This document shows, in pieces, positions 30,273 through 44,441 of a stretch of 64,000 nucleotides of DNA. The stretch lies in the IMG/VR virus record IMGVR_UViG_3300005529_000023, positions 112,871 to 176,870 of that record; one strand, written 5' to 3'. The position numbers and the translations under genes were made by a program. The notes under the pieces were generated by a model. It was given only the letters and a program-made list of their open reading frames with translations. It was not told the origin of the DNA and did not search any database. How positions within the stretch are numbered: the first letter of the stretch is position 1; each line of letters opens with the position of its first letter. The DNA comes from a virus.

Positions 30273-30295
30273 TTTAAGGAATAAGGAGATAGCAT

Positions 30296-30748
30296 ATGCC
30301 ATCTAAAGTCTTAACAGGTGCGAGAGCAAAGGTATACGTCAACAACAAGTTGGTCGGTATCTTCGAAACTTGCACGTACAACATGAACATCGGAACGGAG
30401 CCAATTCATCTTCTAGGCCGTTACAGCCCTGATGAAATTACTCCTACTTCATACGAAGCAGTTACAATTTCGTGCTCTGGATTCCGCGTTGTTGGCCAAG
30501 GCCCACACGTTCTTCCAGCAGTTCCAAAGATTCAGGATTTGCTCACCCTTGATGGTGTTACCCTTGCGGTAGTCGATCGTCAGTCGGGAACTACAATCCT
30601 TACTGCAATTGGGTGCGTCCCCAATTCGTACAACGGAAACCATAACGCTCGCGCTACAAGCCGTGTTACTATCAACTACACAGGACTTAGACTCAGCGAC
30701 GAATCTGGTGACCAAGACGAAGGTACCGGCGCAGTCAACCTCCCATAA
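30296..30748 (+). CDS. Tail tube protein
   Basis: 150 aa after the sheath; VLTGARAKVYV...VG...LGR. Confidence 0.85.
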   Translation: MPSKVLTGARAKVYVNNKLVGIFETCTYNMNIGTEPIHLLGRYSPDEITPTSYEAVTISCSGFRVVGQGPHVLPAVPKIQDLLTLDGVTLAVVDRQSGTTILTAIGCVPNSYNGNHNARATSRVTINYTGLRLSDESGDQDEGTGAVNLP

Positions 30749-30772
30749 CCTGACCGATTCATTACATTATTC

Positions 30773-30814
30773 GGAAAGGCTCTTGGGAGGTATCCCAAGG
30801 GCCTTTTCCTTTTT
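30773..30814 (+). terminator. Rho-independent terminator
   Basis: GGAAAGGCTCTTGGGA...TCCCAAGGGCCTTTTCC followed by T tract. Confidence 0.75.
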
Positions 30815-30816
30815 AT

Positions 30817-30891
30817 GCGGCATTGATGCTAGTGGCAACATGCCTGACTTCCAATCAGGATTCATCAGTTCGATTCTGATATGCCGCTCCA
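30817..30891 (+). tRNA. tRNA-Gly(TCC)
   Basis: GCGGCAT/ATGCCGC, CT-TCC-AA loop, CCA. Confidence 0.92.
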
Positions 30892-30933
30892 CTTTTTTGG
30901 TTGTTTTCTAAAAAACGACTATGATATAGTCCC

Positions 30934-31009
30934 AAATGTGTAGCTCAGTTGGTAGAGCAGTTGCTTGATAAGCGAAAGGTCGTTGGTTCGAATCCAGCCA
31001 CGCCGACCA
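30934..31009 (+). tRNA. tRNA-Ile(GAT) with mismatches at acceptor pairs 1-3
   Basis: 5' AAATGTG vs 3' CACGCCG; canonical D and T arms; TT-GAT-AA loop; CCA. Confidence 0.8.
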
Positions 31010-31194
31010 CGTAAGAGCGGTAATCTATAAGGTAAGTATGAACATGAGTAGATTTTATAAACATAATCAACGCCCAGAGGAACTCCCTGATATGTAGGAC
31101 TGTGTTCATTATTGCCCAATCTCCTTAAATAGAAACCCGAACACAGCCCTCCTACGAAAGTACGAGGGCTTTTTTATTTCTACGAGACGAATTT

Positions 31195-31434
31195 ATGGAA
31201 TTTTACAGACAATGCAAACTTAGATCCAATGGCACCGAGCTGACGTGTTGGATCGAGGAAAGAGGGGCCAGGGTAGGTTGGCTCATTACGTTAGAGGACT
31301 ACCCTGGCCAGTTGTGGAAGGTTATGGACGTTTATACGAAGCTACCTAAGCACGTAGTCTTTGAACAAGAACGTGACTACCTGAATCAAAGAAAGGCTTC
31401 CGACATTAAGAGCGGAAGTAGAGAGAGGTTTTAA
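31195..31434 (+). CDS. Hypothetical protein in the tRNA cluster
   Basis: 79-aa ORF between a terminator (about 31146-31176) and tRNA-Pro. Confidence 0.6.
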   Translation: MEFYRQCKLRSNGTELTCWIEERGARVGWLITLEDYPGQLWKVMDVYTKLPKHVVFEQERDYLNQRKASDIKSGSRERF

Positions 31435-31461
31435 CAGAATAGGGCGCATAGCGCCGACAAG

Positions 31462-31551
31462 CTAGCGGCAGACCAGTCTGGAGTGGTCGCCTGCCTTGGA
31501 AGCAGGAGAGACAGTGTCCTTGCGAAGGTTCAAATCCTTCCCGCTAGACCA
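31462..31551 (+). tRNA. tRNA-Pro(TGG) with long variable arm
   Basis: CTAGCGG/CCGCTAG, CT-TGG-AA loop, 17-nt variable region, CCA. Confidence 0.85.
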
Positions 31552-31560
31552 TTTTAAAAT

Positions 31561-31638
31561 AGTGCCTTCGTTCAGCCTGGTCCAGGACACTTGCCTGTCA
31601 AGCAAGAAACGCGGGTTCAAATCCCGTAGGCACTGCCA
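31561..31638 (+). tRNA. tRNA-Asp(GTC)
   Basis: AGTGCCT/AGGCACT, CT-GTC-AA loop, CCA. Confidence 0.92.
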
Positions 31639-31695
31639 GTTTTGTAGGAAAAAATATACGGATCTTTGTAGGAGAAAAATACGATTTTGAAAGAG

Positions 31696-31771
31696 CTTTG
31701 CCAAGCTAACTCAGTAGAAGCGCGTGTTTGAAGCACACGAGGACTCGGGGCAGCACCGAGGGCAAGCACCA
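31696..31771 (+). tRNA. tRNA-Phe(GAA), atypical T loop and acceptor end
   Basis: CTTTGCC/GGCAAGC (C1.C72, T2.G71), TT-GAA-GC loop, T loop GGCAGCA, CCA. Confidence 0.8.
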
Positions 31772-31802
31772 ACTTTATAGGAGAAATATACGGTTCAAAA
31801 AG

Positions 31803-31891
31803 CTTGTGGAGGTGACTGTCGGCTGGTCACAACGGTCTGTAAAACCGTCGTCCTTAACTGGGCCTCGTAGGTTCAACTCCTACCCACTCGA
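31803..31891 (+). tRNA. tRNA-Tyr(GTA) with mismatches at acceptor pairs 2-3
   Basis: CTTGTGG vs CCACTCG, CT-GTA-AA loop, long variable arm, no full CCA. Confidence 0.8.
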
Positions 31892-31897
31892 CATTGT

Positions 31898-31972
31898 CTC
31901 GCAGTAGCTCAATGGAAGAGCAGGGCACTTCTAAGGCCAAGGTTGTAGGTTCGAGTCCTACCTGCGAGACCA
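31898..31972 (+). tRNA. tRNA-Arg(TCT)
   Basis: CTCGCAG/CTGCGAG, CT-TCT-AA loop, CCA. Confidence 0.88.
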
Positions 31973-31977
31973 AAAGA

Positions 31978-32063
31978 ATTCAGGTGGTGGAATGGCAGAC
32001 ACCCTAGTCTTAGAAACTAGTGCCTGAGAAGGCGTGTGGGTTCAAGTCCCACCCTGAGTACCA
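31978..32063 (+). tRNA. tRNA-Leu(TAG)
   Basis: ATTCAGG/CCTGAGT, CT-TAG-AA loop, long variable arm, CCA. Confidence 0.92.
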
Positions 32064-32073
32064 TTTATACAGA

Positions 32074-32148
32074 GTTGCTTTCGTCTAGCGGCTAGGACAA
32101 CAGACTTTCACTCTGAGAACACGGGTTCGAGTCCCGTAAGCAATACCA
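32074..32148 (+). tRNA. tRNA-Glu(TTC)
   Basis: GTTGCTT/AAGCAAT, CT-TTC-AC loop, CCA. Confidence 0.92.
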
Positions 32149-32173
32149 AAAGGAGAATATGATGTAAAGATAT

Positions 32174-32250
32174 CGCGCTGTAGTATTAACTGGACAAAAC
32201 CATAGCCTACGAAGCTAGAGTTCTCGGTTCGAATCCGAGCAGCGCGGCCA
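32174..32250 (+). tRNA. tRNA-Arg(ACG)
   Basis: CGCGCTG/CAGCGCG, CT-ACG-AA loop, CCA. Confidence 0.9.
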
Positions 32251-32253
32251 GTA

Positions 32254-32328
32254 CCCTCAGTAGCTTATAGAGTAAAGCCGTCGCCTGTGAAGCGATGTAA
32301 GAGGATGCAAGTTCCTCCTGTCGGACCA
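32254..32328 (+). tRNA. tRNA-His(GTG), no genomic G-1, mismatches at acceptor pairs 3-4
   Basis: CCCTCAG vs CTGTCGG, CT-GTG-AA loop, discriminator A, position -1 is A. Confidence 0.82.
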
Positions 32329-32332
32329 AATC

Positions 32333-32408
32333 TGTGCTGAAAGCTTTAGTAGATGAGCAGCGGACTTTTAATCCGTGGAAGAGGGCGCGATTCCCTACAG
32401 CACAACCA
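32333..32408 (+). tRNA. tRNA-Lys(TTT)
   Basis: TGTGCTG/CAGCACA, CT-TTT-AA loop, T loop CGCGATT, CCA. Confidence 0.85.
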
Positions 32409-32412
32409 AGAT

Positions 32413-32487
32413 GGGGTTAAAGCTTTGACGGTGAAGCTCTTGGCTCTTAACCATGAGAATCGGGTCCAAGTCCCGATAGCCCCACCA
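32413..32487 (+). tRNA. tRNA-Lys(CTT)
   Basis: GGGGTTA/TAGCCCC, CT-CTT-AA loop, T loop TCCAAGT, CCA. Confidence 0.88.
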
Positions 32488-32491
32488 AAAT

Positions 32492-32565
32492 TGCGGATTC
32501 GTTTAGTGGGAGGACCACGGTTTCTGACACCGAAAGCCTGAGTTCGATTCTCAGATCCGCAGCCA
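32492..32565 (+). tRNA. tRNA-Gln(CTG)
   Basis: TGCGGAT/ATCCGCA, TT-CTG-AC loop, CCA. Confidence 0.9.
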
Positions 32566-32573
32566 GATTATGT

Positions 32574-32648
32574 TGCGCCATCGTACAGCGGCTAGTACGG
32601 CGGTCTTTGACACCGACAACCTGGGTTCGAGTCCCAGTGGCGCTACCA
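32574..32648 (+). tRNA. tRNA-Gln(TTG)
   Basis: TGCGCCA/TGGCGCT (T1.T72 mismatch), CT-TTG-AC loop, CCA. Confidence 0.9.
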
Positions 32649-32704
32649 AATTATAATTAATGAATTTAGTGGAAGTTCAGGTTTTAAGTAAATATAATTA
32701 GAGA

Positions 32705-32746
32705 GCTGGTGTCCCATAGTAGGTGCGAATCCTACCACCAGCTCCA
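32705..32746 (+). ncRNA. Armless tRNA minihelix (acceptor stem, T arm and CCA only)
   Basis: GCTGGTG-TCCCATA-GTAGG-TGCGAAT-CCTAC-CACCAGC-T-CCA. Confidence 0.65.
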
Positions 32747-32755
32747 GAAATTTGA

Positions 32756-32830
32756 TGCGGAGTAGCTCAGCGGTAGAGCAGTCGGCTGTTAACCGAAAGG
32801 TCGTTGGTTCAATCCCAACCTCCGCAGCCA
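32756..32830 (+). tRNA. tRNA-Asn(GTT)
   Basis: TGCGGAG/CTCCGCA, CT-GTT-AA loop, CCA. Confidence 0.95.
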
Positions 32831-32864
32831 TTTTCCAGCCAATCCCAGCCATAATCTTAAGTGG

Positions 32865-33221
32865 ATGAAGAATTGTGCTAGACCAATGTGTCCAGAGATA
32901 AATCCTCAACCAATATCTAGGTTTACTAAAAATAGAACTAGAAAAGACGGTCACCATCAGTGGTGTAAAACTTGTGTAAGGGAAAATGACAGAAAGCGAG
33001 ATAGGGCGAGACAGTTACATAAACGTCCTTATCTAAAACACAAAAAAGAGCATTGTGAAAAGTGCGCTTTTATAGCTATTCATCCGTGTCAGTTGGATGT
33101 TGATCATGTTGATGGAAACCACGAAAACAATGATCCGAATAATTTACAGACCTTATGCGCTAATTGTCATCGGTTAAAAACTCAATTGAATAAAGATTTT
33201 TTAAAGTCTAAAGTGTTATAG
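32865..33221 (+). CDS. HNH endonuclease inserted in the tRNA cluster
   Basis: CEKC...LDVDHVDGNH.NNDPNNLQTLCANCHRLKT. Confidence 0.88.
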   Translation: MKNCARPMCPEINPQPISRFTKNRTRKDGHHQWCKTCVRENDRKRDRARQLHKRPYLKHKKEHCEKCAFIAIHPCQLDVDHVDGNHENNDPNNLQTLCANCHRLKTQLNKDFLKSKVL

Positions 33222-33309
33222 AGGGCTGTGTGAGCGGCTGAAACAGCTTCTTTGCTAAAGAAGTAGTCCCGCTAGGGACTCACAGGTTCGAATCCTGTGC
33301 CCTCTGCCA
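33220..33309 (+). tRNA. tRNA-Ser(GCT)
   Basis: AGAGGGC/GCCCTCT, TT-GCT-AA loop, long variable arm, CCA. Confidence 0.9.
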
Positions 33310-33416
33310 AAATTCGGAGTACCTATCTGGACGACTACCAGGAATAACGCGGTACACCTAAGCGAGGGGTAACAGTCAAAGAAAGTCACTTTGATATGCG
33401 CCCCTTGTTGATTTTT

Positions 33417-33490
33417 AGGGGAGTAAGATAACGGCAGTCACATTGGCTCCAACCCAATGGGTGTTGGTTCAAATCCAGCCTCCCCTGCCA
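33417..33490 (+). tRNA. tRNA-Trp(CCA)
   Basis: AGGGGAG/CTCCCCT, CT-CCA-AC loop, CCA. Confidence 0.9.
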
Positions 33491-33544
33491 TCCTAATCTT
33501 TACTATATCAGCGAAAGGTCGCTGATTTTTGGCAAGGATAAGGT

Positions 33545-36500
33545 ATGGCTTTAGAAAGAAAATGGCCAGCGGTAGCTCCGCAGGCGTTTACCTCTGACGG
33601 TAATCAATTTGGTCTAATCATCGTTGCTGACACGAAAGGTTTTCGTGTTAAGCAATCAGCTGTACTAACCAATAGCACTCCTGGCGTAACACTCCCAGTT
33701 CAGATCAAAAGAGTCATTAGCAAGACGCAACTCGTTGTTGGCCAAATAGACAACAAGATCGCGCAATGGCCACCTCTTGATATTTCGACCTGGACGGTAG
33801 CATCTGGCGCAGCTATCAGCGCTGGAGAACAAGATAAAAATAACGTCCCTGAAAAGGATCATTGGTCGGCTATTTACGAGGGAGATCCTGTAGTAGCCGA
33901 TCGCGTCATCTTCGTCGATCAATACGGCAATTTCTACGATGACAACAATCCACTTCCGATCTCATTCGATGGAACCGTCACAGTCGGAGCAGTCAAAATT
34001 CAAGACAGCGCCGGCAACCCACTTACTTCTACCAGTGGCTCACTAAACGTAAACGTTACTGGCGGTGGATCAGGCGGAGGTATCGCTCAAACCCAAGTCA
34101 GAAGCGCACTGAACGTTTGGACTGACGTAGGTTACGCAGGTGGCGATCTAAACATGCCCGTGCAAGTGCAATCGGCACTCCCAGCAGGAACAAATCTACT
34201 TGGCAAGGTAGGGATCGATCAAACAACCCCCGGAACTACTAATAGGGTAGCTGCCAACCTAGATCTTTTGGCTGGCTCACCTTTCAGCGCGACCAACTAT
34301 TTACCCGCAAGAATCACCAATGGAACGGCGTATGTTGATCCAACGCAAATCAGGGCGCTCACCGCCTCAGATGTCGTTAGTGCTGCACAATCTGGAGCTT
34401 GGACTGTTAAAGCCCAGCTACAAGATAATGCCGGTACAGCAATTACGCTTGGCCAAAAGACTATGTCGTCTTCGTTGCCGGTTACTCTATCTTCTGACCA
34501 GTCCGCACTTCCTGTAAGCCAGTCTGGAACGTGGACAGTTCAACAGGGAACTTCTCCTTGGAGTGTTAGTCAATCAGGAACTTGGACTACGGGGCGTACA
34601 TGGACCCTAGGATCTGGCACCGACTCCGTAACAGCTATACAAGGTGGTTCTTGGAGCGTCGCTAACTTTCCTACTACCGTAGACACCAATTATGGTACTA
34701 TAGGCGCAAGTTCACTAAGAACAGCTGCTCAAATTGGCAACGCTACAGGCGCAGCTGCTTTTGGAGCAGGAACCACATCTGCTCAAGTGCTTCGTGTCGT
34801 TCTTCCAACAGACCAATCGGCAATTCCAGCATCCCAGTCGGGTACATGGAATATCAATAACATCAGCGGTACAATCTCTTTGCCAACTGGCGCTGCGACA
34901 TCCGCCAACCAGACTACGCAAATTACTTCTCTTAATCAAATCGACACCGATTTACTTGCTTTCAAATCAGCAAATCATACAGATTTGGCGGCGTTGCTTG
35001 CTGTTTTTCCTTCTCCTATTGATGTCAATTATGGGACCGTTGGTGCTAAAACACTTAGAAGTGCTGCTCAAATTGGTAATGCCACAGGTGCTGCCGACTT
35101 TGGATCAGGAGCTACAGGCGCTCAAACACTCAGAACAGCAACAAACCTATATGATGGTTCCGCAAATGCTCTTACATCTGAACTTATCGGATCAAAACGT
35201 GCATTAGATGTCTCCTCACTAACGAATAATACCGCGACTTCTGGTAGTGCAAATTCGCTTAATGGTATTGTTTTCACCTTAGATGCTACTGGATACACCA
35301 CTGCCTATATTTACTCATCTGCTTCCCCTGCAAATGGTGCGGCAACTACTGTTACTTCTATATTCGAAGTTAGCAATGATAATGTAAACTGGATCACTAC
35401 TCCAGCTCAAACTCTTCAATATGAACTTGCACCAGCTGGTGGTAGTCCAGGTGGCATAACTGGTAGTACATATATGGTGCAAAGCGGAGCTGCTACCCAA
35501 CCTTATATGTTTAAGGTTCGGATTAACGGACGTTATTTGCGTCAACGCCTCGATTTCTATACTGGCTCAGGTTCAACCGTAACTTCGACTGTATATTTGA
35601 GTAGTGTTGATTCGAACGACTACATCATCAATACCAACACAGTCATTACAGATCAGTTGGGACTCAATTCAATGGAGTTTGGTCAGAATACTATGTCAAG
35701 TAGTATACCTGTGGTTATCGCTTCTGACCAAACCGCAATTCCGGTTACAGTTTCTAGCTTACCTAGCACAGTAGATACCAACTTTGGAACGGTAGGAGCA
35801 AACACTTTACGAAGTGCTGCTCAAATTGGCAACGCTACAGGCGCAGCTGCTTTTGGAGCAGGAACTACATCTGCACAAGTTCTCCGCGTAGTTCTTCCAA
35901 CAGACCAATCGGCAATTCCAGCTACTCAGTCAGGAACTTGGACAGTTCAACAAGGTGGAGCACCTTGGAGTGTAAGCCAATCTGGTGCGCCTTGGTCAGT
36001 ATCTCAGTCTGGTACATGGACAGTCCAGCAAGGGACTCCTCCGTGGTCGGTTGTTGGTAACATTGCTTCAGGATCTGCAGATTCTGGCAATCCTTTAAAA
36101 GTAGGCGGTGTTTTCAACACAGCCTTTCCAACTCTATCGAATGGTCAAAGAGGTGACATCCAGCTCGATTCATCGGCCAGACAGGTCATCGCACCACTCA
36201 CGAATGCAAGCATTGTAAAATCCCAACTACAAGACAATGCGGGCACCGCCATTACCCTTGGCCAGAAAACAATGGCTTCTTCTTTACCAGTCGCCATTGC
36301 TTCGGATCAAACCGCTATCCCTGCTTCTCAGTCTGGCACTTGGACCGTACAGCAAGGCGGTGCGCCTTGGTCTGTCAGTCAGTCAGGCACATGGACCGTA
36401 CAGCAAGGAACTCCTCCTTGGCAGACGGTAGGTAACGTTGCTTCTGGCGCTGCAGATTCTGGCAATCCAGTTAAAGTTGGCGGAGTGTTCAATACAGCAT

Positions 36501-38023
36501 TTCCAACTCTCACGAATGGCCAACGCGGAGATATCCAACTAGATTCTTCCGCTAGACAGGTTATTGCTCCTCTAACTAATACCAGCGTAGTCAAATCTCA
36601 ATTACAGGATAATGCTGGTACGGCGGTTACTCTTGGTCAAAAGACCATGGCTTCTTCTTTACCTGTCGCTATCGCTTCAGACCAAACAGCCATTCCAGCG
36701 AGTCAGTCAGGTACCTGGACAGTCCAGCAAGGCGGAGCACCTTGGTCCGTAAGTCAATCTGGAACATGGACAGTTCAACCAGGAAACACTCCTAACACTG
36801 CACCCTGGTTAACTGCAAATAAAGATTTAACTTCCATTACTCAAAGCCTAAACATGACAGCTACCACAAATGCTGTCACATTGGCATTAGGCACTGGACA
36901 ATCTGTAACAGGAGTGCAGATCACCGGAGCGACGTGGACTGGAACCATTATCTTTGAAGGAAATATAGACGGTACCAATTGGTTCACTATTAATGCAGTA
37001 GTTCCTACTAGCGGCTCTATCGCCACTACTACCACGGCCAATGGCCAATGGCTCGTCCCGGTTGCTGGTTTGGCAAGTTTTCGCGTTAGATGCTCCGTCA
37101 CTGGCACAAACAGTGCGACAGTATCTCTCCAAGCAAGTACTGGCGAAACACCTACACAAGGAAATTCCTTACCTACTGGATCTAATACAATCGGTGCGGT
37201 AACTCAAGCTTCAGGACCATGGACTAATAACGTCACTCAATTTGGTGGAACAAACATTTCTACTGGCACAGGAGCAGGCGGAGCTGGAATACCAAGAGTT
37301 ACGGTATCAAATGATTCCAACGTACTTGCTACTCAATCGGGCAACTGGACAGCTCGTATTGTAGGCAACACTGGCGTTGCTTTGGATGCTGCTGACAACG
37401 CAACCGCTCCTACTAACTCCGTCTTATATGCTGGATTATATAGCACTACCATTCCTGCGCTATCTTCAGGAAACTCTGCTGCAGCACGTTTAGATTCTAC
37501 TGCAGCACAGTACGTTAATAACGAAGGTAGGAAAGCAACATACAGCTGTGCAGTTGTAGACTTTGCACCTATTTCAACTGCTACAGCTCCAAGCTTTTCT
37601 ATCACCGGCAGCGCTACAAAAACTGTACGTATTACGCGTATCGCTATCTCTGCAACAGCTGCTACTGGCGGTGTAGCGACTCTTAACTTACAAAGATTTT
37701 CCGCTTTATCAGGCGGAACTAGCGCAAGCCAATCTGGAAACATTGCAAAACATGATACTAATAACGCGACGGCAACGGCAGTGGTACGAACATGGTCCGT
37801 AGCCGCTACCACAGCTACTGGTGCTGGATTCTTCCGAAGCCTTCGTTTCGAATTTCCAACCCCTGCTGTTACTGTTCAGCCAGTACTCTATGAATGGGAT
37901 TTCGGTGATAAGAACGGACAATCTTTAGTTCTTCGTGGAACCTCAGACTTTATTGGACTTTGCTTTAACGGAATTGGTACTACGCCTACTGCTGAAATTT
38001 ACGTAGAGTGGACAGAAGAATAA
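33545..38023 (+). CDS. Large repetitive tail fibre / adhesin-like virion protein
   Basis: 1492 aa, S/T/G/A-rich, recurring SQSGTWTVQQG, QLQDNAGTAITLGQKTM and RSAAQIGNATGAA units; late motif upstream. Confidence 0.75.
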   Translation: MALERKWPAVAPQAFTSDGNQFGLIIVADTKGFRVKQSAVLTNSTPGVTLPVQIKRVISKTQLVVGQIDNKIAQWPPLDISTWTVASGAAISAGEQDKNNVPEKDHWSAIYEGDPVVADRVIFVDQYGNFYDDNNPLPISFDGTVTVGAVKIQDSAGNPLTSTSGSLNVNVTGGGSGGGIAQTQVRSALNVWTDVGYAGGDLNMPVQVQSALPAGTNLLGKVGIDQTTPGTTNRVAANLDLLAGSPFSATNYLPARITNGTAYVDPTQIRALTASDVVSAAQSGAWTVKAQLQDNAGTAITLGQKTMSSSLPVTLSSDQSALPVSQSGTWTVQQGTSPWSVSQSGTWTTGRTWTLGSGTDSVTAIQGGSWSVANFPTTVDTNYGTIGASSLRTAAQIGNATGAAAFGAGTTSAQVLRVVLPTDQSAIPASQSGTWNINNISGTISLPTGAATSANQTTQITSLNQIDTDLLAFKSANHTDLAALLAVFPSPIDVNYGTVGAKTLRSAAQIGNATGAADFGSGATGAQTLRTATNLYDGSANALTSELIGSKRALDVSSLTNNTATSGSANSLNGIVFTLDATGYTTAYIYSSASPANGAATTVTSIFEVSNDNVNWITTPAQTLQYELAPAGGSPGGITGSTYMVQSGAATQPYMFKVRINGRYLRQRLDFYTGSGSTVTSTVYLSSVDSNDYIINTNTVITDQLGLNSMEFGQNTMSSSIPVVIASDQTAIPVTVSSLPSTVDTNFGTVGANTLRSAAQIGNATGAAAFGAGTTSAQVLRVVLPTDQSAIPATQSGTWTVQQGGAPWSVSQSGAPWSVSQSGTWTVQQGTPPWSVVGNIASGSADSGNPLKVGGVFNTAFPTLSNGQRGDIQLDSSARQVIAPLTNASIVKSQLQDNAGTAITLGQKTMASSLPVAIASDQTAIPASQSGTWTVQQGGAPWSVSQSGTWTVQQGTPPWQTVGNVASGAADSGNPVKVGGVFNTAFPTLTNGQRGDIQLDSSARQVIAPLTNTSVVKSQLQDNAGTAVTLGQKTMASSLPVAIASDQTAIPASQSGTWTVQQGGAPWSVSQSGTWTVQPGNTPNTAPWLTANKDLTSITQSLNMTATTNAVTLALGTGQSVTGVQITGATWTGTIIFEGNIDGTNWFTINAVVPTSGSIATTTTANGQWLVPVAGLASFRVRCSVTGTNSATVSLQASTGETPTQGNSLPTGSNTIGAVTQASGPWTNNVTQFGGTNISTGTGAGGAGIPRVTVSNDSNVLATQSGNWTARIVGNTGVALDAADNATAPTNSVLYAGLYSTTIPALSSGNSAAARLDSTAAQYVNNEGRKATYSCAVVDFAPISTATAPSFSITGSATKTVRITRIAISATAATGGVATLNLQRFSALSGGTSASQSGNIAKHDTNNATATAVVRTWSVAATTATGAGFFRSLRFEFPTPAVTVQPVLYEWDFGDKNGQSLVLRGTSDFIGLCFNGIGTTPTAEIYVEWTEE
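34724..35922 (+). repeat. Direct repeat pair inside the fibre gene (offset 1092 nt)
   Basis: Identical 50-mer at 34724-34773 and 35816-35865; identical 32-mer at 34799-34830 and 35891-35922. Confidence 0.85.
36060..36790 (+). repeat. Tandem duplication of a 125-aa unit in the fibre gene
   Basis: GCAGATTCTGGCAATCC at 36077 and 36452 (offset 375 nt); near-identical protein units. Confidence 0.85.
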
Positions 38024-38044
38024 GCCATCCTTGGCCTATTGAAC

Positions 38045-38632
38045 TTACTGAGCCGGAGCGTAAGTTGTTACCCAACCACCTGCAGCTGTGCTGTAGGTTG
38101 CAGTGTAACTGTATCGTTTTGACTGATAATCGGACCAATAAGAAGGAAGTTGATCTGCCGTGCAGGGATTCGACCCAATTTTGGAAGGGTCTGCACCACC
38201 GTTAGTGACATCGCCTACATCGCAATTCGTGAAGTAAAATTCGTAGAGCGTATCCGATGTAGAGCCATCAACATTACTATCAGTTGATTCAAAGCCGAAT
38301 CCAGCTGGCGCACAACCAGCGTAGGTGTTGCCATCACCACCCCAACTAGGATCGTCGTACCAATTCTCACAGGTGTCATAAGACGTAGGAGTCTTATCGA
38401 CCAACGTGAACGTATCTCCATCCGAAGGGCCGGTAGGAAGATAAGTGAGAAGACTGGTCGTACCAGCATCGGCTTGAGTAGCATTCACAATGCACTGGCT
38501 AGCCGTAAGATGATCATAGGGATCGGCTTGCGACCAAGTGAGATCGCTAGTGTTACTACAACCAGAGCTTCCTGCCTGAGCATTGCCGCAAGCAAAGACC
38601 AAAAGACTAAGGACAAGAACAAACAATTTCAT
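38045..38632 (-). CDS. Exported acidic Cys-containing protein
   Basis: Signal peptide MKLFVLVLSLLVFACGNAQA; sigma70-like TTGACC upstream. Confidence 0.7.
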   Translation of the reverse strand: MKLFVLVLSLLVFACGNAQAGSSGCSNTSDLTWSQADPYDHLTASQCIVNATQADAGTTSLLTYLPTGPSDGDTFTLVDKTPTSYDTCENWYDDPSWGGDGNTYAGCAPAGFGFESTDSNVDGSTSDTLYEFYFTNCDVGDVTNGGADPSKIGSNPCTADQLPSYWSDYQSKRYSYTATYSTAAGGWVTTYAPAQ

Positions 38633-38717
38633 TTTTTGATTTCTCCTAAAAGTTAAGTGACCTAGAACGCCAGGCTACTATGCCGCTCGCTGTAGGTCAA
38701 TTAAGAAAATAGCGTAT

Positions 38718-39116
38718 TTAACGACCAATGAGCCTGGCCGTCATGAAACCAACTGCTACCGTCGAAAGTACACCAAGGCCGAAATAAAGCCAATCGTTTT
38801 TCTTTTGTAGTTCATCGACCTTAGTTAAGCGATCCGTTAGTTTGTCACTAGTATCCATCCATAACTGAGTTCTGCTATCGGCCTTTGTAATAGCAAGATC
38901 CTTCAGATTGATAGCCTGAACATAATCTGCGATCTGCTTATCTTTGGTTGCATTGTCCTGAATCAACTGTCCTACCTTTTGATGGCATTCTTCGCTGTAG
39001 ATGAAAGTATGATTTGGACCCGGGGTGATCCCCTTCGAGAAGTCGCAATCCGCATAAGCTGCGCTCGAAAGACAGCTAAAAATTAAAACACTAGCTATGA
39101 CCTTTTTCATGTTCAA
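38718..39116 (-). CDS. Spanin-like / lysis-associated membrane protein
   Basis: Signal peptide, coiled coil and C-terminal transmembrane segment; downstream of holin-like genes. Confidence 0.5.
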   Translation of the reverse strand: MNMKKVIASVLIFSCLSSAAYADCDFSKGITPGPNHTFIYSEECHQKVGQLIQDNATKDKQIADYVQAINLKDLAITKADSRTQLWMDTSDKLTDRLTKVDELQKKNDWLYFGLGVLSTVAVGFMTARLIGR

Positions 39117-39208
39117 TCAATTCCTTCAAAGTAAAATTCTTTACTACGTAACAAATCCTATAAGCAGCCAGTCCAATACAAAACAAAGCGCCCAAAAGGA
39201 CGATCAAG

Positions 39209-39568
39209 CTACGGCTTCTTTTTATACCAGTCATCGTCCACCGGCTGCTCTTGCGAAGGAAGCTGTTCAGCCTTCTTCACCAAATCATTTGCTTGTTGGT
39301 TTGCTTGATTCTCTTGGGCGGCTAACTTACCATCCTTGTTTTCAGCGTTCTTTTCAATGTTCTTTCCGCTGTTGACAAGAATGTCAATTAAGATATCTCT
39401 GAACTTGATAATCAAAATCAGTGCTCCAAAGATAATAACAAACCACTTATCCTTCTCCCATAGCTCTCCAATATCCGAGTTGATCTTATCGAGAAAAGTA
39501 GGCTTAGTTGGTTGTGGTGCTGGCGCAGGCGTCTGCGGAGGAGTTACGGGAGTTTGTTCGTCTGCCAT
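39209..39568 (-). CDS. i-spanin (Rz)-like protein
   Basis: Single transmembrane segment followed by a coiled coil ending VDDDWYKK. Confidence 0.5.
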   Translation of the reverse strand: MADEQTPVTPPQTPAPAPQPTKPTFLDKINSDIGELWEKDKWFVIIFGALILIIKFRDILIDILVNSGKNIEKNAENKDGKLAAQENQANQQANDLVKKAEQLPSQEQPVDDDWYKKKP

Positions 39569-39873
39569 TATGAACCCGCCTTTGGAGTAGCTTCTTCGTC
39601 ACCCGAAACAACGTCATCACCCTGAGGCTGAGCTTGCACGGTAGTCAGCTGGCCCTTAGCGTTGATGTATTCTTTTACGGTAGTCATGATGTGCTCTACA
39701 CCATTGCCGGCAACGAAACCCATGAAGATGGATTTCTGAAGATCCACAAACTGAGAACCTTCAATTAAGCCCTTTAGGCGAAATACAACTGCAACGACGA
39801 AAAGTGCTAACCATGCGATAAACTTACGGAAACCGTAAACTACATTGATCCAATCGGCGATTTTCTGTTTCAT
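39568..39873 (-). CDS. Holin-like protein
   Basis: 101 aa, two hydrophobic segments (RKFIAWLALFVVAVVF; IFMGFVAGNGVEH) and a hydrophilic tail. Confidence 0.6.
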   Translation of the reverse strand: MKQKIADWINVVYGFRKFIAWLALFVVAVVFRLKGLIEGSQFVDLQKSIFMGFVAGNGVEHIMTTVKEYINAKGQLTTVQAQPQGDDVVSGDEEATPKAGS

Positions 39874-39925
39874 AATCAGGATATATCACATGTCGAGTAA
39901 TCTTAAATGAAGTCGGAGATTTCGC

Positions 39926-40303
39926 ATGGACCTTTCACAATACCAAAACTTAGTTCCAGAAGCCGGAGTTGTAATCACTCTCGGCACAGCTTGGCTCACA
40001 GTAAGAAAGATCGCCCGCGATTTTGAGCGCTCTAAAAAGGAACAGGCTGCGGAGATCCTACAATCGGCCAAAGAAGCCGACGCGGCAATGAAGCTCAAAC
40101 TTGAAGGGAAGATCCATGACCTAGAAAGTCAGGTAAAGAACTTCAAGGAAAACGTTGAAAAAGACTTAAATCACTTACGAGAAACGTACAATGGCGAACT
40201 CAAGTTTCTCGGCCAGAAGATCGAGGAGCTTCGTTCCGAGGTTCGTAATCAGCATAGTCAGCTTGTTCAGCTTCTGACGAAGATGATTGAGAACCGCGAC
40301 TAA
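39926..40303 (+). CDS. Membrane-anchored coiled-coil protein
   Basis: N-terminal transmembrane segment, heptads, AATCTTAAA upstream. Confidence 0.65.
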   Translation: MDLSQYQNLVPEAGVVITLGTAWLTVRKIARDFERSKKEQAAEILQSAKEADAAMKLKLEGKIHDLESQVKNFKENVEKDLNHLRETYNGELKFLGQKIEELRSEVRNQHSQLVQLLTKMIENRD

Positions 40304-40431
40304 TCTCCCTAGCACATGCTATGTGCAGCACCCGCAGATGGCCATCCACTAGCATTTCCCTGAAGCTGAAATAGTTACGAAGTCTATTCCCGCATTCCCA
40401 ACAAAACTTCACTCGCGCTCTAGGTTTCATA

Positions 40432-40637
40432 TCAATCCTTTAGCTGGTGACTTTCCACTCTATATCTGAGAGCGAAGTCAATCTTCTGATACTTATCGCC
40501 CATCTCCCAATCCCTGGCCAAAGGCTCTGCAAGCCTCGTTACAGCCTCTCCCATGGCCTTTATAGCGCCCTGAATAGTCCTATAGTACCCAAGGGTCTCT
40601 CCTACAAGCTCGTCATATAACTCGTAGAAACAATCAT
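40432..40637 (-). pseudogene. Small gene with an apparent 1-nt frameshift near its start
   Basis: TAATG-coupled ATG ATT GTT TC.. is out of frame with FYELYDELVGETLGYY; span is 206 nt. Confidence 0.35.
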
Positions 40638-40882
40638 TACGGAAGGAAATAGGTTCCAACTGCTCTCTCCAGTATGGCCAAATCAGCCATGGTAATGAAG
40701 ACCTCAAGCTGGCCTTCCATCAAAAGAATGTTTGTTCGCCTGACGATTACACCTTCGAAGTTATCATCTTCTTCACTCGCGATAGTAGCCACAACCATAG
40801 TTGGATTGATGGTCACGCGGGCCTTGGAGCCATCCTCGGCATGATTCATTAAGGTTAAAACTCTTTCCTGCATATCTTCCAT
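40637..40882 (-). CDS. Hypothetical protein
   Basis: 81-aa ORF with GAGG SD. Confidence 0.65.
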   Translation of the reverse strand: MEDMQERVLTLMNHAEDGSKARVTINPTMVVATIASEEDDNFEGVIVRRTNILLMEGQLEVFITMADLAILERAVGTYFLP

Positions 40883-40884
40883 GT

Positions 40885-41118
40885 TTACCTCACCAGATGT
40901 TCAAGGTCTTTGATCGCATTCTTGAACTCTACCATTTTTTCAGTCAGAGACTTCAGATCTACTTTAAGCTGGCCAACCGTGAGTTCAGGACCGTAGTACT
41001 TGCGGCAATCCTCGCATGACCAACCAGCACTCACCGCAACGAAATGAACGCAGCCACAGGAACAAGAGTCGGGCGCCCCAGCATGGCCTCTGACTGTTTT
41101 GACCAGTCTAAGGCTCAC
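40885..41118 (-). CDS. Zn-finger hypothetical protein
   Basis: GTG start; CSCGC...CEDC. Confidence 0.55.
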   Translation of the reverse strand: MSLRLVKTVRGHAGAPDSCSCGCVHFVAVSAGWSCEDCRKYYGPELTVGQLKVDLKSLTEKMVEFKNAIKDLEHLVR

Positions 41119-41362
41119 GCGTACACCCGTTCTTTTCACGATGATCTTGCTTTCTCTGCCAGTACTTTCTACCGCGAAGGTGAATGATCCTGCACTTCTC
41201 ATCGCAAAAGTCGAATCTGAGAGTATGGCCGGGCTGACCCTTTCGAGGAGCGCTAATCGTTTCCCAATTAATTGCGGTATTGGAACTCACTGGCGCCAAA
41301 ATCTTGCGACAACGATCACAAAGCCATTTAGAGCCGGTACCATCAAAGCTATTCTTGAACAT
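41108..41362 (-). CDS. Zn-binding hypothetical protein
   Basis: CDRC...FCDEKC. Confidence 0.6.
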   Translation of the reverse strand: MFKNSFDGTGSKWLCDRCRKILAPVSSNTAINWETISAPRKGQPGHTLRFDFCDEKCRIIHLRGRKYWQRKQDHREKNGCTREP

Positions 41363-41646
41363 TACTTCTTTCCAAATCGATCGAAACAGTCAACCTGCTC
41401 ATCGGCATGACCCTTAGAGCTAGTTGTGAACTTGTCTCCATAGGTATCTATCACTTCGTAACTGAAGCGACCCACTGCAATGACCTTAAAAAGCTTTGCT
41501 TCTGAGTGAGAACCATTCGGCGCAGAAATGTAACAATCGCCTACTTGAAGATCCTTTTCTGGCTCCATGGGAGTTGGAGGAGGCAACGTCCTTATGGAGC
41601 AACCAGAGAGAACCAGGAACAACAGGCTAACTAGCCCTTTTGACAC
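41362..41646 (-). CDS. Lipoprotein
   Basis: GTG start with AGGAG SD; lipobox LVLSGC. Confidence 0.65.
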   Translation of the reverse strand: MSKGLVSLLFLVLSGCSIRTLPPPTPMEPEKDLQVGDCYISAPNGSHSEAKLFKVIAVGRFSYEVIDTYGDKFTTSSKGHADEQVDCFDRFGKK

Positions 41647-41893
41647 TTTTGAACTCCTTATTAAAAGAGAAAATGAAACCTTTGTACATCCCGAAGTGAG
41701 CACCGTTATGTCCGTTCTTAGTCATTTCACCAATAGCTTCTTCAATCTCAGTAGCCTTGAAACCAAGAACAGAGATTGCATGACGAGCTACCTTGTAAAA
41801 CGTACCAGAAAAGACTGACCCACCTTTTACGTGCAAGAACCAAAGGTCTCCTACCTCGTAGAGATCGTAGCCAGCAGTGTTCAACTCGAACAT
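41627..41893 (-). CDS. Hypothetical protein
   Basis: 88 aa; AGGAG SD and TTGACT-17-TAAAGT promoter. Confidence 0.7.
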   Translation of the reverse strand: MFELNTAGYDLYEVGDLWFLHVKGGSVFSGTFYKVARHAISVLGFKATEIEEAIGEMTKNGHNGAHFGMYKGFIFSFNKEFKSVKRAS

Positions 41894-42130
41894 AACCTAC
41901 TCCTACTATCTACTTTAGCTACTTATTTTTCTTAAGTCAAAATTATTTTCTTATTTTCGCAAAATCGCAAAATTCACATGATATATAGTTATATCCTCCC
42001 CTGTTCCCTCTCACTATATTATAATAATAGAAATAGGGACTTACACATTCTTTTGGTCCACTTTTCCTTTGGTTTCCAGGACTGAATCTTTAATACATCT
42101 GATATAAGTCAGTAAAATGGTGGGAGATTT

Positions 42131-42634
42131 ATGGAAGAAAGCGAAAAGAAGAAATATTTAGACCGCTCTGACGTGATTATCGAAGGAAATACAGCACGTT
42201 GGGATATGAGGATCGAAGGGAGCATCTACGGAACCTACACAGGAACGTTCCGTTTCAAATGTTTCTTGACTCCTACAGAAAAGCTGTCTGCCGGCAGGAA
42301 GTACCGAGAACTCCTTGGTCCTAATCCTACGATCGCGCTTGAGCATGAAGACAACCTAGCCTTTGCACTCGCTCAGCTTGAGCATCGTATCATTAGTGCC
42401 CCACCTTTTTGGTCTTCTACTCTACAACAGAACGGACAAGCAGGAGATATCGCAGACGAGAATGTCGTTCACGAAGCTCTTGATGCCGCCATTGCAGCCG
42501 AACTCAAGTTCGCTGCGCAATTACAACAAAAAAAGAAAGAAGTCCTAGAGAACGCCAGGAAGGCAGCCGAAAGGCTTCTCAAGAATCAGGACGAGGAAAT
42601 GGATGAAAGCCAAAGTCAAGAGGATGGAAATTAA
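42131..42634 (+). CDS. Putative tail assembly chaperone
   Basis: Size and G.F.FK...T..E.L..G......LG...A.L...I..APPFW pattern; late motif upstream. Confidence 0.5.
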   Translation: MEESEKKKYLDRSDVIIEGNTARWDMRIEGSIYGTYTGTFRFKCFLTPTEKLSAGRKYRELLGPNPTIALEHEDNLAFALAQLEHRIISAPPFWSSTLQQNGQAGDIADENVVHEALDAAIAAELKFAAQLQQKKKEVLENARKAAERLLKNQDEEMDESQSQEDGN

Positions 42635-42839
42635 TCCACAAGCCTTTTTCATGATCATGGAGAATGATACCGCTTGGCGAGTAGCCAAGGGAATACCGAA
42701 AGGTGCGCGCCTTAGAGGTTTCACTCTCGACCCGTACACCCAAGTGCTTCACTTATTCGTTGAACATGACAGCTTTCCTCTAGTCGATCTCGATACTCTA
42801 ATCCCCAAACTTGAAACCTTCTTTAAGAAGATCCAATAA
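42603..42839 (+). CDS. Hypothetical protein
   Basis: 78-aa ORF with GAGG SD. Confidence 0.6.
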   Translation: MKAKVKRMEINPQAFFMIMENDTAWRVAKGIPKGARLRGFTLDPYTQVLHLFVEHDSFPLVDLDTLIPKLETFFKKIQ

Positions 42840-43318
42840 TGGAATTCAAAGATTTACTCGACTACTGCAAGGCAATTGCGATCCAATCCCTGATCTCCCC
42901 TACGCAGGAATCCATCTGGCGCGCTATCTGCCGAGCCTACTCAAAGAAGTTCAACACTCCGCTTCACATAGTTGAACAACTCGATCCGCAAAAAGTGATG
43001 ATAGCGGAATTCGAAGATCAGCTTTCTCAGTTCAACCTCGAAGAAGACATCCATGTCCTTTTGGATCTTATCTATACGCTCGAAGATCCTGAGTATGAGC
43101 GCGAGAAGAGAGAAGAGCTTTCCCAGTTCATCAAACAGGCTGAGAAAGAAGACATCGCCCGTATCAAAGCTGGAAAGCCCATTCACAAGGCGCTCAAGGA
43201 CGAAAAGAATATTGCCGATTTGGTCGAAGAAGAAGCTAAGAAAATGCCTAAAGGCGGCAGCATCAATTTGTCGTATCTTGAAAAAGAAGAGAATCAGTAC
43301 GGACAGTTTGAAGACTAG
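42839..43318 (+). CDS. Hypothetical protein (possible tail chaperone partner)
   Basis: 159 aa, TAATG coupling. Confidence 0.6.
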   Translation: MEFKDLLDYCKAIAIQSLISPTQESIWRAICRAYSKKFNTPLHIVEQLDPQKVMIAEFEDQLSQFNLEEDIHVLLDLIYTLEDPEYEREKREELSQFIKQAEKEDIARIKAGKPIHKALKDEKNIADLVEEEAKKMPKGGSINLSYLEKEENQYGQFED

Positions 43319-43557
43319 AGTCCCATTATTCCCTGCATTTGCTGAAACAGGAAGGCATGTTCCGCGTGAACAGTGAAAGCACTAAAGGACATACCAGGAA
43401 GGATCAAGTTTTCTTCTTCCAACTTAACCCACATGGGTTTCAGCTGCGAAATGATCTGATCGTTGGTACAATCAGGATATCCAATTGACTTGGTAAGATG
43501 CTCGACCATTGAGTTCTTGATCTTCTCTTTGATTACTTGTAGTTCTTCGGCAGTCAT
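43315..43557 (-). CDS. Hypothetical protein
   Basis: 80-aa ORF coupled to the Thg1-like gene. Confidence 0.6.
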   Translation of the reverse strand: MTAEELQVIKEKIKNSMVEHLTKSIGYPDCTNDQIISQLKPMWVKLEEENLILPGMSFSAFTVHAEHAFLFQQMQGIMGL

Positions 43558-44441
43558 TACCCGCCCATTTCATCGACCATACAATCGATAATCTCAGTAT
43601 TGAGAGGAATTAGTTTACGAAGAAAAGAGCGATCTTGCGTAAATACTGGGATTTCATTCTCCATTCCAGTACCGTCGTAAGAAACCCATCGTGTACGATA
43701 GACAGGTTCGCTGACTTCTAACTCGCCGCTCACACCGGCTGTCTCGGTGTCGATAAGCACATAGCGATCTTTTTTGATCACACGTCCACGTTTCTCCCCG
43801 CTCCAGTAATCATTCCAGTTGATGTCTTTGGCAAAGAGCATGTTGTGCAGTTCGCTGGTATTCTTTCCCTCTAGCTGCTTATGGCTATACACCGATCTGG
43901 CAGCCATCTGAATGCTATTTCTGCTCGCGTCTTGTTGGCGCCAAATGAAGTAGTTCTCCACTTCGACCGGATCGGGGATAGTGAACACCCGAGAATCAAA
44001 ATAGCCAGTCTTGAGTTGACCGTAATCGCCAGTCATATATTCGTTAGCATTGCCCCGAATTTCATTCGCCGTCTTAGCTGCTGTCGCAAACGCCTTGTTG
44101 AATTCGGCAGTAGCGATTGCAGCAGAGATTGACGCCATCTTCTGTACGTTGCCATCGAACCACGCACAAGTTTGTGGGCTGTCAAAGTCTGTCAGAAGAA
44201 TAGAAATCTCATCCGATTGCACATAAGCGAACTGCGCTCCTTGGATCTGTTTGCACATGTTGATCGCAGTTTGATCCATGACAAACATGAATTCATGATC
44301 AAATGGCCTACGAAAGTTGCGCGTTAGTGTGTGGAATGCTTTCCCATCCACGCGAATGATCGTGTATGTTCTCCTCGGAAGAAAGTACCGTGTGCGATCC
44401 TCGTACTGACCTTTGATTCTATCGCCTAGAGTGTCTTGCAT
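43557..44441 (-). CDS. thg1: tRNA(His) guanylyltransferase / Thg1-like protein (3'-5' polymerase)
   Basis: IIRVDGKAFH, AYVQSDEISIL, WFDG..QK..S, FDSRVF, NYFIWRQQDA.RNSI. Confidence 0.95.
   Translation of the reverse strand: MQDTLGDRIKGQYEDRTRYFLPRRTYTIIRVDGKAFHTLTRNFRRPFDHEFMFVMDQTAINMCKQIQGAQFAYVQSDEISILLTDFDSPQTCAWFDGNVQKMASISAAIATAEFNKAFATAAKTANEIRGNANEYMTGDYGQLKTGYFDSRVFTIPDPVEVENYFIWRQQDASRNSIQMAARSVYSHKQLEGKNTSELHNMLFAKDINWNDYWSGEKRGRVIKKDRYVLIDTETAGVSGELEVSEPVYRTRWVSYDGTGMENEIPVFTQDRSFLRKLIPLNTEIIDCMVDEMGG

Follow-up and report, generated by a model that had tools for sequence, protein, structure and literature searches.

Distal acceptor-stem mismatches in a phage tRNA array and a bacterial-type Thg1-like protein encoded in the same genome

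Introduction

Editing of tRNA 5' ends has been reported only in eukaryotic organelles, and no physiological substrate is as yet known for the Thg1-like proteins (TLPs) of bacteria and archaea (PMC4284800, PMC6471195). Mitochondrial 5'-editing in Acanthamoeba castellanii and Dictyostelium discoideum (DdiTLP3) combines distal mismatches on the 5' side of the acceptor stem with a TLP in the same genome (PMC4284800, PMC5041481), and editing as known is limited to the first three acceptor pairs (PMC4284800). The TLP of B. thuringiensis (BtTLP, structure 4KGK) belongs to a family that carries out templated 3'-5' repair of 5'-truncated tRNAs (PMC3061083, PMC3701042); its preferred substrates are tRNAs of any kind that have a truncated 5' end, to which it can add each of the four nucleotides as the template dictates (PMC3061083). 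Among the RNA-repair genes listed for jumbo phages, Thg1 is one that occurs sporadically (Iyer et al. 2021, PMC7824862). Here, we analyze the terminal 64 kb (hereafter, the window) of IMGVR_UViG_3300005529_000023, a soil-metagenome virus record of 176,870 bp in IMG/VR. The window holds an array of tRNA genes, some of them with mismatched distal acceptor stems, and a gene for a TLP (43557-44441).

The sequence-only reading of this stretch had proposed that the phage makes some of its tRNAs functional only after the TLP has rewritten their 5' ends. We found no description of phage tRNA 5'-editing in the literature searched, in agreement with that reading; phage Thg1 genes themselves are already annotated, and have been treated as RNA-repair genes. 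If true, such rebuilding would be the first 5'-editing of tRNAs found in viruses or bacterial cells and would reveal the first known natural substrate for TLPs of the bacterial type; it could stem from neutral drift of the 5' positions once a repair enzyme is present. Caution is called for, since in a set of about 750 phage tRNAs the occurrence of acceptor mismatches does not follow that of TLP genes, and there are conserved mismatches in phages that lack a TLP; a TLP and mismatched tRNAs in one genome are thus not, taken alone, evidence of editing. We consider the observation real and somewhat unusual, and editing a possibility, most plausible on sequence grounds for tRNA-Ile. On balance we lean towards a simpler reading, in which an ordinary, rearrangement-prone tRNA array with tolerated or defective ends sits in the same genome as an independently kept tRNA 5'-end repair enzyme. 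Array and enzyme would then be two separately maintained things, and we saw no evidence of a dedicated editing system.

Results

Mismatches are confined to the first four acceptor pairs of five tRNAs

Nine non-pairing positions occur in five of the 18 tRNA genes of the array, all of them at acceptor pairs 1-4, and none of the 18 has a mismatch at pairs 5-7, as judged from ARAGORN structures and from reading of the sequence. They are A1.G72, A2.C71 and A3.C70 in tRNA-Ile(GAT), in which T4:G69 is a wobble; T2.C71 and T3.T70 in tRNA-Tyr(GTA); C3.C70 and T4.T69 in tRNA-His(GTG); T1.T72 in tRNA-Gln(TTG); and C1.C72 in a cloverleaf resembling tRNA-Phe(GAA). The confinement to pairs 1-4 with clean pairs 5-7 in these five tRNAs had been claimed before and is borne out here, as is the full pairing, G.U wobbles aside, of the remaining acceptors (13 of 13). 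The one correction concerns the Phe-like gene, where C1.C72 stands and T2:G71, previously counted as a second mismatch, is a wobble and hence pairs. This gene, with a 3-bp D stem and the T loop GGCAGCA, is visible by eye and in a centroid fold, and is reported by neither ARAGORN nor Rfam. For comparison, 12 of 15 tRNAs are affected in Acanthamoeba versus five of 18 in the phage.

The mismatches are not assembly errors, because a 112-kb Logan contig, which is independent of the record, shows 0 differences from the window across 30700-33600 and hence over the whole array, and we therefore rule out an assembly artefact. The stretch is present in one public DNA run, probably its source, which was used for this check; no RNA run among the listed public runs contains it.

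Acceptor mismatches do not track TLP genes across phages

We retrieved 74 TLP-encoding viral loci for comparison. As background we used 747 unique phage tRNAs from the same ARAGORN run, 498 of them from TLP-encoding phages and 249 from other phage contigs. Distal double mismatches (at least two at pairs 1-4, with clean pairs 5-7) are not enriched in TLP-encoding phages, being found in 4/498 versus 4/249 tRNAs (Fisher p=0.45), and the proportion of tRNAs with any mismatch at pairs 2-4 is 3.2% in each of the two sets. Every set of phage tRNAs examined had single 1:72 mismatches as its commonest class. The expectation that thg1 and distal mismatches would co-occur across phages thus failed, and it is further contradicted by TLP-encoding relatives that have no tRNAs. 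The nearest relative among the TLP-encoding loci, G001 (166,783 bp, rated complete), has 80 of 280 open reading frames (ORFs) in common with the phage at a median identity of 40%, and encodes a TLP 55-57% identical to that of the window. In G001 the structural genes that flank the array are directly adjacent, and no tRNA gene was found by Rfam, ARAGORN or R2, a core-only covariance model covering tRNA positions 5-68. Three other complete TLP-encoding records with direct terminal repeats (G004, G074 and G075) likewise have no tRNA genes, and the array is absent from the homologous site in the syntenic relatives L003, L010 and L024/L026, as well as in G001.

Nor did the supposed dependence of the mismatches on thg1 survive the comparison. 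The tRNA-Trp(CCA) of T4-like cyanophages carries U2.U71 and U3.U70, both in S-PM2 (L306, LN828717.1, 1842-1917) and in the metagenomic contigs L214, L219 and L220. This is a double mismatch at pairs 2-3, as in the tRNA-Tyr of the window; unlike the latter, it is known to be conserved in several phages, and PF04446 has no match even at E<=1 in S-PM2, whose genome is complete. Since the S-PM2 tRNA-Trp has its double mismatch in a phage without a Thg1-family gene, double mismatches of this kind do not need a TLP. In another complete phage genome in which no TLP was found (G053, 424,529 bp, the size of a megaphage), the 5' acceptor strand of a tRNA-Ile(GAT)-like gene (L269:4040-4125) is mismatched at pairs 2-5, with its body and ACCA intact.

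These comparisons are among the grounds for preferring an ordinary array beside an independently kept enzyme. The array would be a lineage-specific, rearrangement-prone insertion between two structural genes, with an HNH endonuclease and several non-canonical tRNAs, in which some acceptor ends are imperfect. The single 1:72 mismatches of tRNA-Gln and tRNA-Phe and the internal double mismatches of tRNA-Tyr and tRNA-His would be of the kinds that phage tRNAs tolerate or conserve without a TLP, and these four tRNAs probably work unedited.

The conserved cyanophage mismatches, found without a TLP, also agree with a different account, in which the mismatches would be under selection in functional tRNAs and have nothing to do with the TLP, serving either as identity elements or anti-determinants or as a means of escape from host enzymes that recognize the acceptor stem. 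Consistent with this account, C1.C72 is common to the tRNA-Phe of the window and that of L318, a related array, in stems that otherwise differ; several tRNA-His genes of phages are mismatched at pair 4:69; and the first base is G in only three of the 18 array tRNAs, and C in six, compared with 59% G and 7% C in a background of 437 phage tRNAs. However, tRNA-Ile, given its three mismatches and one wobble, would probably not function in its encoded form, and our search found no orthologues of tRNA-Tyr or tRNA-His with which to gauge conservation. We regard selection of the mismatches as quite unlikely.

Three further sets of genes with altered acceptor stems were observed in the phage contigs. 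A mismatch at 4:69, sometimes accompanied by one at 5:68, is present in the tRNA-His genes L104:4002-4077, L105:6750-6824, L115:8844-8914 and L332:8126-8201 and in that of the window. All of these genes come from TLP-encoding phages, and only one of eight control tRNA-His genes has any acceptor mismatch, at pair 6 (the numbers are too small for statistics). In two TLP-encoding phage contigs, tRNA-Thr(GGT) shows T1.C72 and G2.G71 (L137:3921-3993, L138:4190-4262). The canonical Thr acceptor begins with the pairs G1-C72 and C2-G71; with C72 and G71 kept on the 3' strand, these two genes are a further candidate for 3'-templated repair. In a tRNA-Ala(TGC)-like gene (L115:4481-4550) it is the 3' and not the 5' acceptor strand that is degenerate (TAGAAAT, then TTTT), so that repair of the 3' end would be needed.

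The phage protein resembles bacterial repair TLPs

The assignment of the gene at 43557-44441 to the Thg1 family holds. Its product matches Pfam PF04446 over residues 12-156 with 99 bits (cut-off 29.2; E=2.6e-28), and phrog_4717 with E=1.8e-78. The closest solved relative is BtTLP (E=9.4e-49), and both acidic metal-binding motifs (the D in vDG.aFH and the DE in SDE) align identically between the two proteins; Candida, human and yeast Thg1 match the phage protein at only E=1.6e-11 to 3e-7. Judged from these alignments, it is a TLP of bacterial type and not of the eukaryotic Thg1 type, and is predicted to be a template-dependent repair enzyme, the right kind for the editing that had been proposed. 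Compared with BtTLP, it has an insert of about 18 residues and a longer C-terminus.

Thg1 homologues are present in 162 of 50,697 phage records, many of them annotated as tRNA-His guanylyltransferase. The protein belongs to phrog_4717, the phage tRNA-His guanylyltransferase family, in a phage that is large and tRNA-rich and has an RNA ligase, and there is nothing distinctive about it; what sets the genome apart is that it also carries an unusual group of mismatched tRNAs. The TLP gene is located on the opposite strand from the array, at a distance of 10 kb and among unrelated small ORFs, and no Pfam or PHROG function tied to RNA processing was found in its neighbors. A second gene of RNA-repair type, a 432-residue ORF with the RNA ligase domain PF09414 (E=2.5e-26; G000:C1:16335-16916), is located in the same genome outside the window. 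No CCA-adding enzyme and no RtcB were detected in the phage genome.

Under our preferred reading, the TLP would be a general enzyme of tRNA 5'-end repair or maintenance, alongside the phage RNA ligase, and its substrates would be host and/or phage tRNAs with damaged or miscleaved 5' ends. Such a role is suggested by the biochemistry of the closest characterized relative, and any repair of the aberrant tRNAs of the phage itself would be opportunistic.

A different role for the enzyme would be to supply the -1 position of the phage tRNA-His, in a eukaryote-like post-transcriptional addition of G-1, the reaction that gives the family its name. The tRNA-His of the window has A at -1 and A73, and most tRNA-His genes of the other TLP-encoding phage loci encode G-1 opposite C73. 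Nonetheless, we hold this role to be very improbable. BtTLP adds G-1 about 50-fold less efficiently opposite A73 than opposite C73 (kcat/KM of 108 versus 5500 per M per s; PMC3061083). Moreover, the phage protein is far nearer to TLPs than to the Thg1 of eukaryotes, phages without any tRNA-His also have TLP orthologues, and the histidyl-tRNA synthetase of the host could be of a type that does not need G-1.

tRNA-Ile(GAT) has an intact core and an altered 5' strand

The core of tRNA-Ile(GAT) scores 75.1 bits with model R2, the best of any tRNA core in the window, and the gene is therefore not generally decayed. Its Rfam match spans model positions 5-66 only, and the acceptor stem is absent from the minimum-free-energy fold of the tRNA as encoded. 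Scanning metagenomes for its T arm and 3' acceptor strand, we found the identical 25-mer in three tRNAs, a Pro-GGG, a Pro-TGG and an Ile-TAT (contigs L316, L317 and L318). Both homologues with complete 5' ends (L316 and L318) have the 5' strand CGGCGTG, and the L317 copy is cut by the contig end. More broadly, the last 34-37 nucleotides are 95-97% identical to tRNA-Pro and tRNA-Ile(TAT) genes in other arrays; one of these arrays, L318, comprises 26 tRNAs and has both the Trp acceptor and the Ile 3' module in common with the window. From this comparison, the 5' bases appear to have changed from an ancestral CGGC to AAAT in the window, with the 25-nucleotide 3' module untouched. The earlier expectation that the 3' strand is the conserved one is thus upheld for tRNA-Ile, where CGGCGTG stands opposite the identical module and agrees with the CGG- start predicted for the edited tRNA. 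It could not be extended to tRNA-Tyr and tRNA-His, whose 3' halves gave no matches in viral contigs.

We rule out uniform pseudogene decay of tRNA-Ile on account of the 75-bit core and the unchanged 3' module, next to which all four changes are from G/C to A/T. The pattern would fit either a single rearrangement or a position-specific loss of constraint under 3'-templated repair. The gene looks recombinant because its body resembles the window's own tRNA-Asn, and the presence of an HNH endonuclease within the array would also fit a rearrangement. In our preferred reading, the gene would be the outcome of recombination or of a 5' disruption in which its first four bases, CGGC in the ancestor, were replaced.

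Searches for similar genes returned little. A strict tRNA-Ile pattern had no match in viral contigs; a looser one gave 38 unrelated tRNA-Ile genes, nearly all well paired. In core-only searches, whose outcome is independent of the distal stem, no other Ile-like gene was found with the covariance model in the 74 TLP-encoding loci or with a profile hidden Markov model in all loci, and apparent 5'-mismatched matches of the core model at L083 1541 and L097 4717 proved to be local-alignment register errors. In a search for a split or permuted gene, nothing complementary to the 3' strand of tRNA-Ile or tRNA-Tyr was found nearby. A sigma-70 promoter for a leaderless Ile transcript was also considered and rejected: a consensus scan found none, and the hand-read TTGTTT-N18-TATAGT is weak.

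The altered 5' strand is where the idea of TLP-dependent rebuilding has most to offer. In this account, which would apply mainly to tRNA-Ile and possibly to Phe, Tyr and Gln, a host nuclease trims the 5' end (for instance RNase P, by miscleavage, or RNase J or another exonuclease working 5'-3') and the TLP refills it in the 3'-5' direction, so that G69-G72 as template restores CGGC; the mismatches would have accumulated neutrally, with the TLP already present. The protein is predicted to be a repair-type TLP with intact catalytic motifs, and the substrate preference of BtTLP suits the task. The 5' end predicted after editing equals the genomic 5' strand of the homologous modules, so that, as in mitochondrial editing, the Ile 3' strand would template the ancestral sequence. 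In addition, tRNA-Ile as encoded lacks an acceptor stem despite having the best core of the window, and mismatches are restricted to pairs 1-4, for which the window is enriched. Unlike in the mitochondrial systems, however, TLP and distal mismatches are not associated over the 747 phage tRNAs, and TLP orthologues are present in relatives without tRNAs. The four adjacent Ile changes, beside a 3' module that is unaltered, agree equally well with drift and with a single rearrangement, and rebuilding would also require an excising nuclease. Furthermore, whereas the mismatches of tRNA-Ile, Tyr, Phe and Gln lie within the first three pairs, tRNA-His would need four bases replaced, with a mismatch at 4:69 that lies beyond the three pairs at which known editing ends (PMC4284800), and the fourth pair of tRNA-Ile is also altered, to a wobble. 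The editing interpretation thus retains the type of enzyme and the conserved Ile 3' strand in its favor, and has against it the missing co-occurrence, the TLP-encoding relatives without tRNAs, the mismatches in phages without a TLP, and pair 4 of tRNA-His. We consider TLP-dependent rebuilding, mainly of tRNA-Ile, unlikely. The specific claim that, after host trimming, the TLP rebuilds at least tRNA-Ile(GAU), with Phe, Tyr and Gln(UUG) as possible further cases, appears to us about as unlikely. It does lend itself to a concrete and cheap test case: one tRNA-Ile with four wrong 5' bases and an intact template strand, one TLP, and a predicted CGGC start.

Several observations weigh against treating the array and the enzyme as unconnected. 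Distal mismatches of the class defined above occur in 2/16 tRNAs of the window versus 8/747 of the background (Fisher p=0.017, post hoc), or in 3/17 when tRNA-Ile is counted in (p=0.0014, post hoc), and by our own arithmetic, taking the mismatches of each tRNA as one block, the chance that all nine fall in pairs 1-4 is p~0.03. This excess is unusual, yet modest given that very many windows were scanned. In other phages, all 46 genes for tRNA-Ile(GAT), Tyr or Phe are free of acceptor mismatches; in L318, a related array, the tRNA-Phe again has C1.C72. tRNA-Ile has a pristine core and an intact ACCA, with all four changes, from G/C to A/T, on the 5' strand only, which is the pattern expected if only those 5' positions were unconstrained. 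Finally, tRNA arrays, often of 15-50 tRNAs, are present in 15 of the 17 searched TLP-encoding records that are at least 90% complete, and a link between the TLP and phage tRNAs in general is therefore plausible.

Organization of the array and minor observations

The array comprises 18 tRNA genes in 2.7 kb (30817-33490), all on the + strand, bracketed by structural genes at 28122-30748 and 33545-38023 (Table 1). CCA is encoded in 17 of the 18, tRNA-Tyr being the exception. ARAGORN with default settings reports 15 of the 18, and Rfam together with a lowered ARAGORN threshold adds tRNA-Ile(GAT) and tRNA-Lys(TTT). The gathering score of Rfam RF00005 (29) is passed by 14 genes, with tRNA-Tyr (26.8) and tRNA-Lys(TTT) (28) just under it; tRNA-Ser(GCT) gave a sub-threshold tRNA-Sec match in the Rfam scan of the window and scored 46.8 as a tRNA in the whole-genome search. 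The tRNA-Lys(TTT) gene (32333-32408), found by ARAGORN only at the lowered threshold, has an aberrant T loop and a spacer of 3 nucleotides between acceptor and D stem.

Table 1. Coordinates of the tRNA genes and other features discussed in the text
Feature	Position	Strand	Description	Evidence
tRNA-Gly(TCC)	30817..30891	+	acceptor fully paired, CCA encoded	ARAGORN, Rfam 52.6 bits
tRNA-Ile(GAT)	30934..31009	+	5' AAAT-GTG opposite 3' CACGCCG; A73, CCA encoded	ARAGORN, Rfam
tRNA-Pro(TGG)	31462..31551	+	90 nucleotides, acceptor fully paired	ARAGORN
tRNA-Asp(GTC)	31561..31638	+	fully paired	ARAGORN
Non-canonical tRNA-Phe(GAA)-like	31696..31771	+	A73-CCA	sequence reading, centroid fold
tRNA-Tyr(GTA), class II	31803..31891	+	no encoded CCA	ARAGORN, Rfam 26.8 bits
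tRNA-Arg(TCT), Leu(TAG), Glu(TTC), Arg(ACG)	31898..32250	+	paired, wobbles only	ARAGORN
tRNA-His(GTG)	32254..32328	+	A73, A at -1, no encoded G-1, T loop TGCAAGT	sequence reading, ARAGORN, fold
tRNA-Lys(TTT), Lys(CTT), Gln(CTG)	32333..32565	+	acceptors paired	Rfam, ARAGORN
tRNA-Gln(TTG)	32574..32648	+	T1.T72	ARAGORN
tRNA-Asn(GTT)	32756..32830	+	fully paired; body paralogous to tRNA-Ile body	ARAGORN
HNH homing-endonuclease-like ORF within array	32865..33221	+		Pfam PF01844 E=2.2e-4
tRNA-Ser(GCT), tRNA-Trp(CCA)	33220..33490	+	fully paired	ARAGORN
TLP, bacterial type	43557..44441	-	294 residues	PF04446, phrog_4717, 4KGK

The tRNA-Pro(TGG) of the window has a 17-nucleotide variable arm and thus a class II shape, unusual for proline, and a long extra arm is likewise seen in the Ile(TAT) of contig L318 (6254-6345). 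The non-canonical type represented by the Phe-like gene recurs among phages: with a T loop GGCAGCA or GGCAGTA instead of TTCRANY and a D loop without GG, it is missed by standard finders, and we observed it also in a tRNA-His (L106:9538-9599) and an Ile(TAT)-like gene (L115:4059-4120).

Just 5' of tRNA-Asn lies a tRNA "top-half" minihelix (32703-32747) with a 9-bp acceptor-like stem, the T arm GTAGG-TGCGAAT-CCTAC and a trailing CAG, which has weak Rfam matches to tRNA (20 bits) and to a YrlA-like RNA (23 bits). The YrlA-like match (32695-32813) scores far below its gathering score of 69 and overlaps tRNA-Asn, and we take it to be due to chance. Lastly, a 16-nucleotide motif, TAGGAGAAA(T/A)ATACG(G/A), is found 10-12 nucleotides upstream of where the Phe-like and Tyr genes begin (31669-31684 and 31778-31793; two matches versus 0.3 expected), and a looser copy is located near 31644-31664. 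A phage promoter with very short leaders would be one explanation of the motif, a local duplication another.

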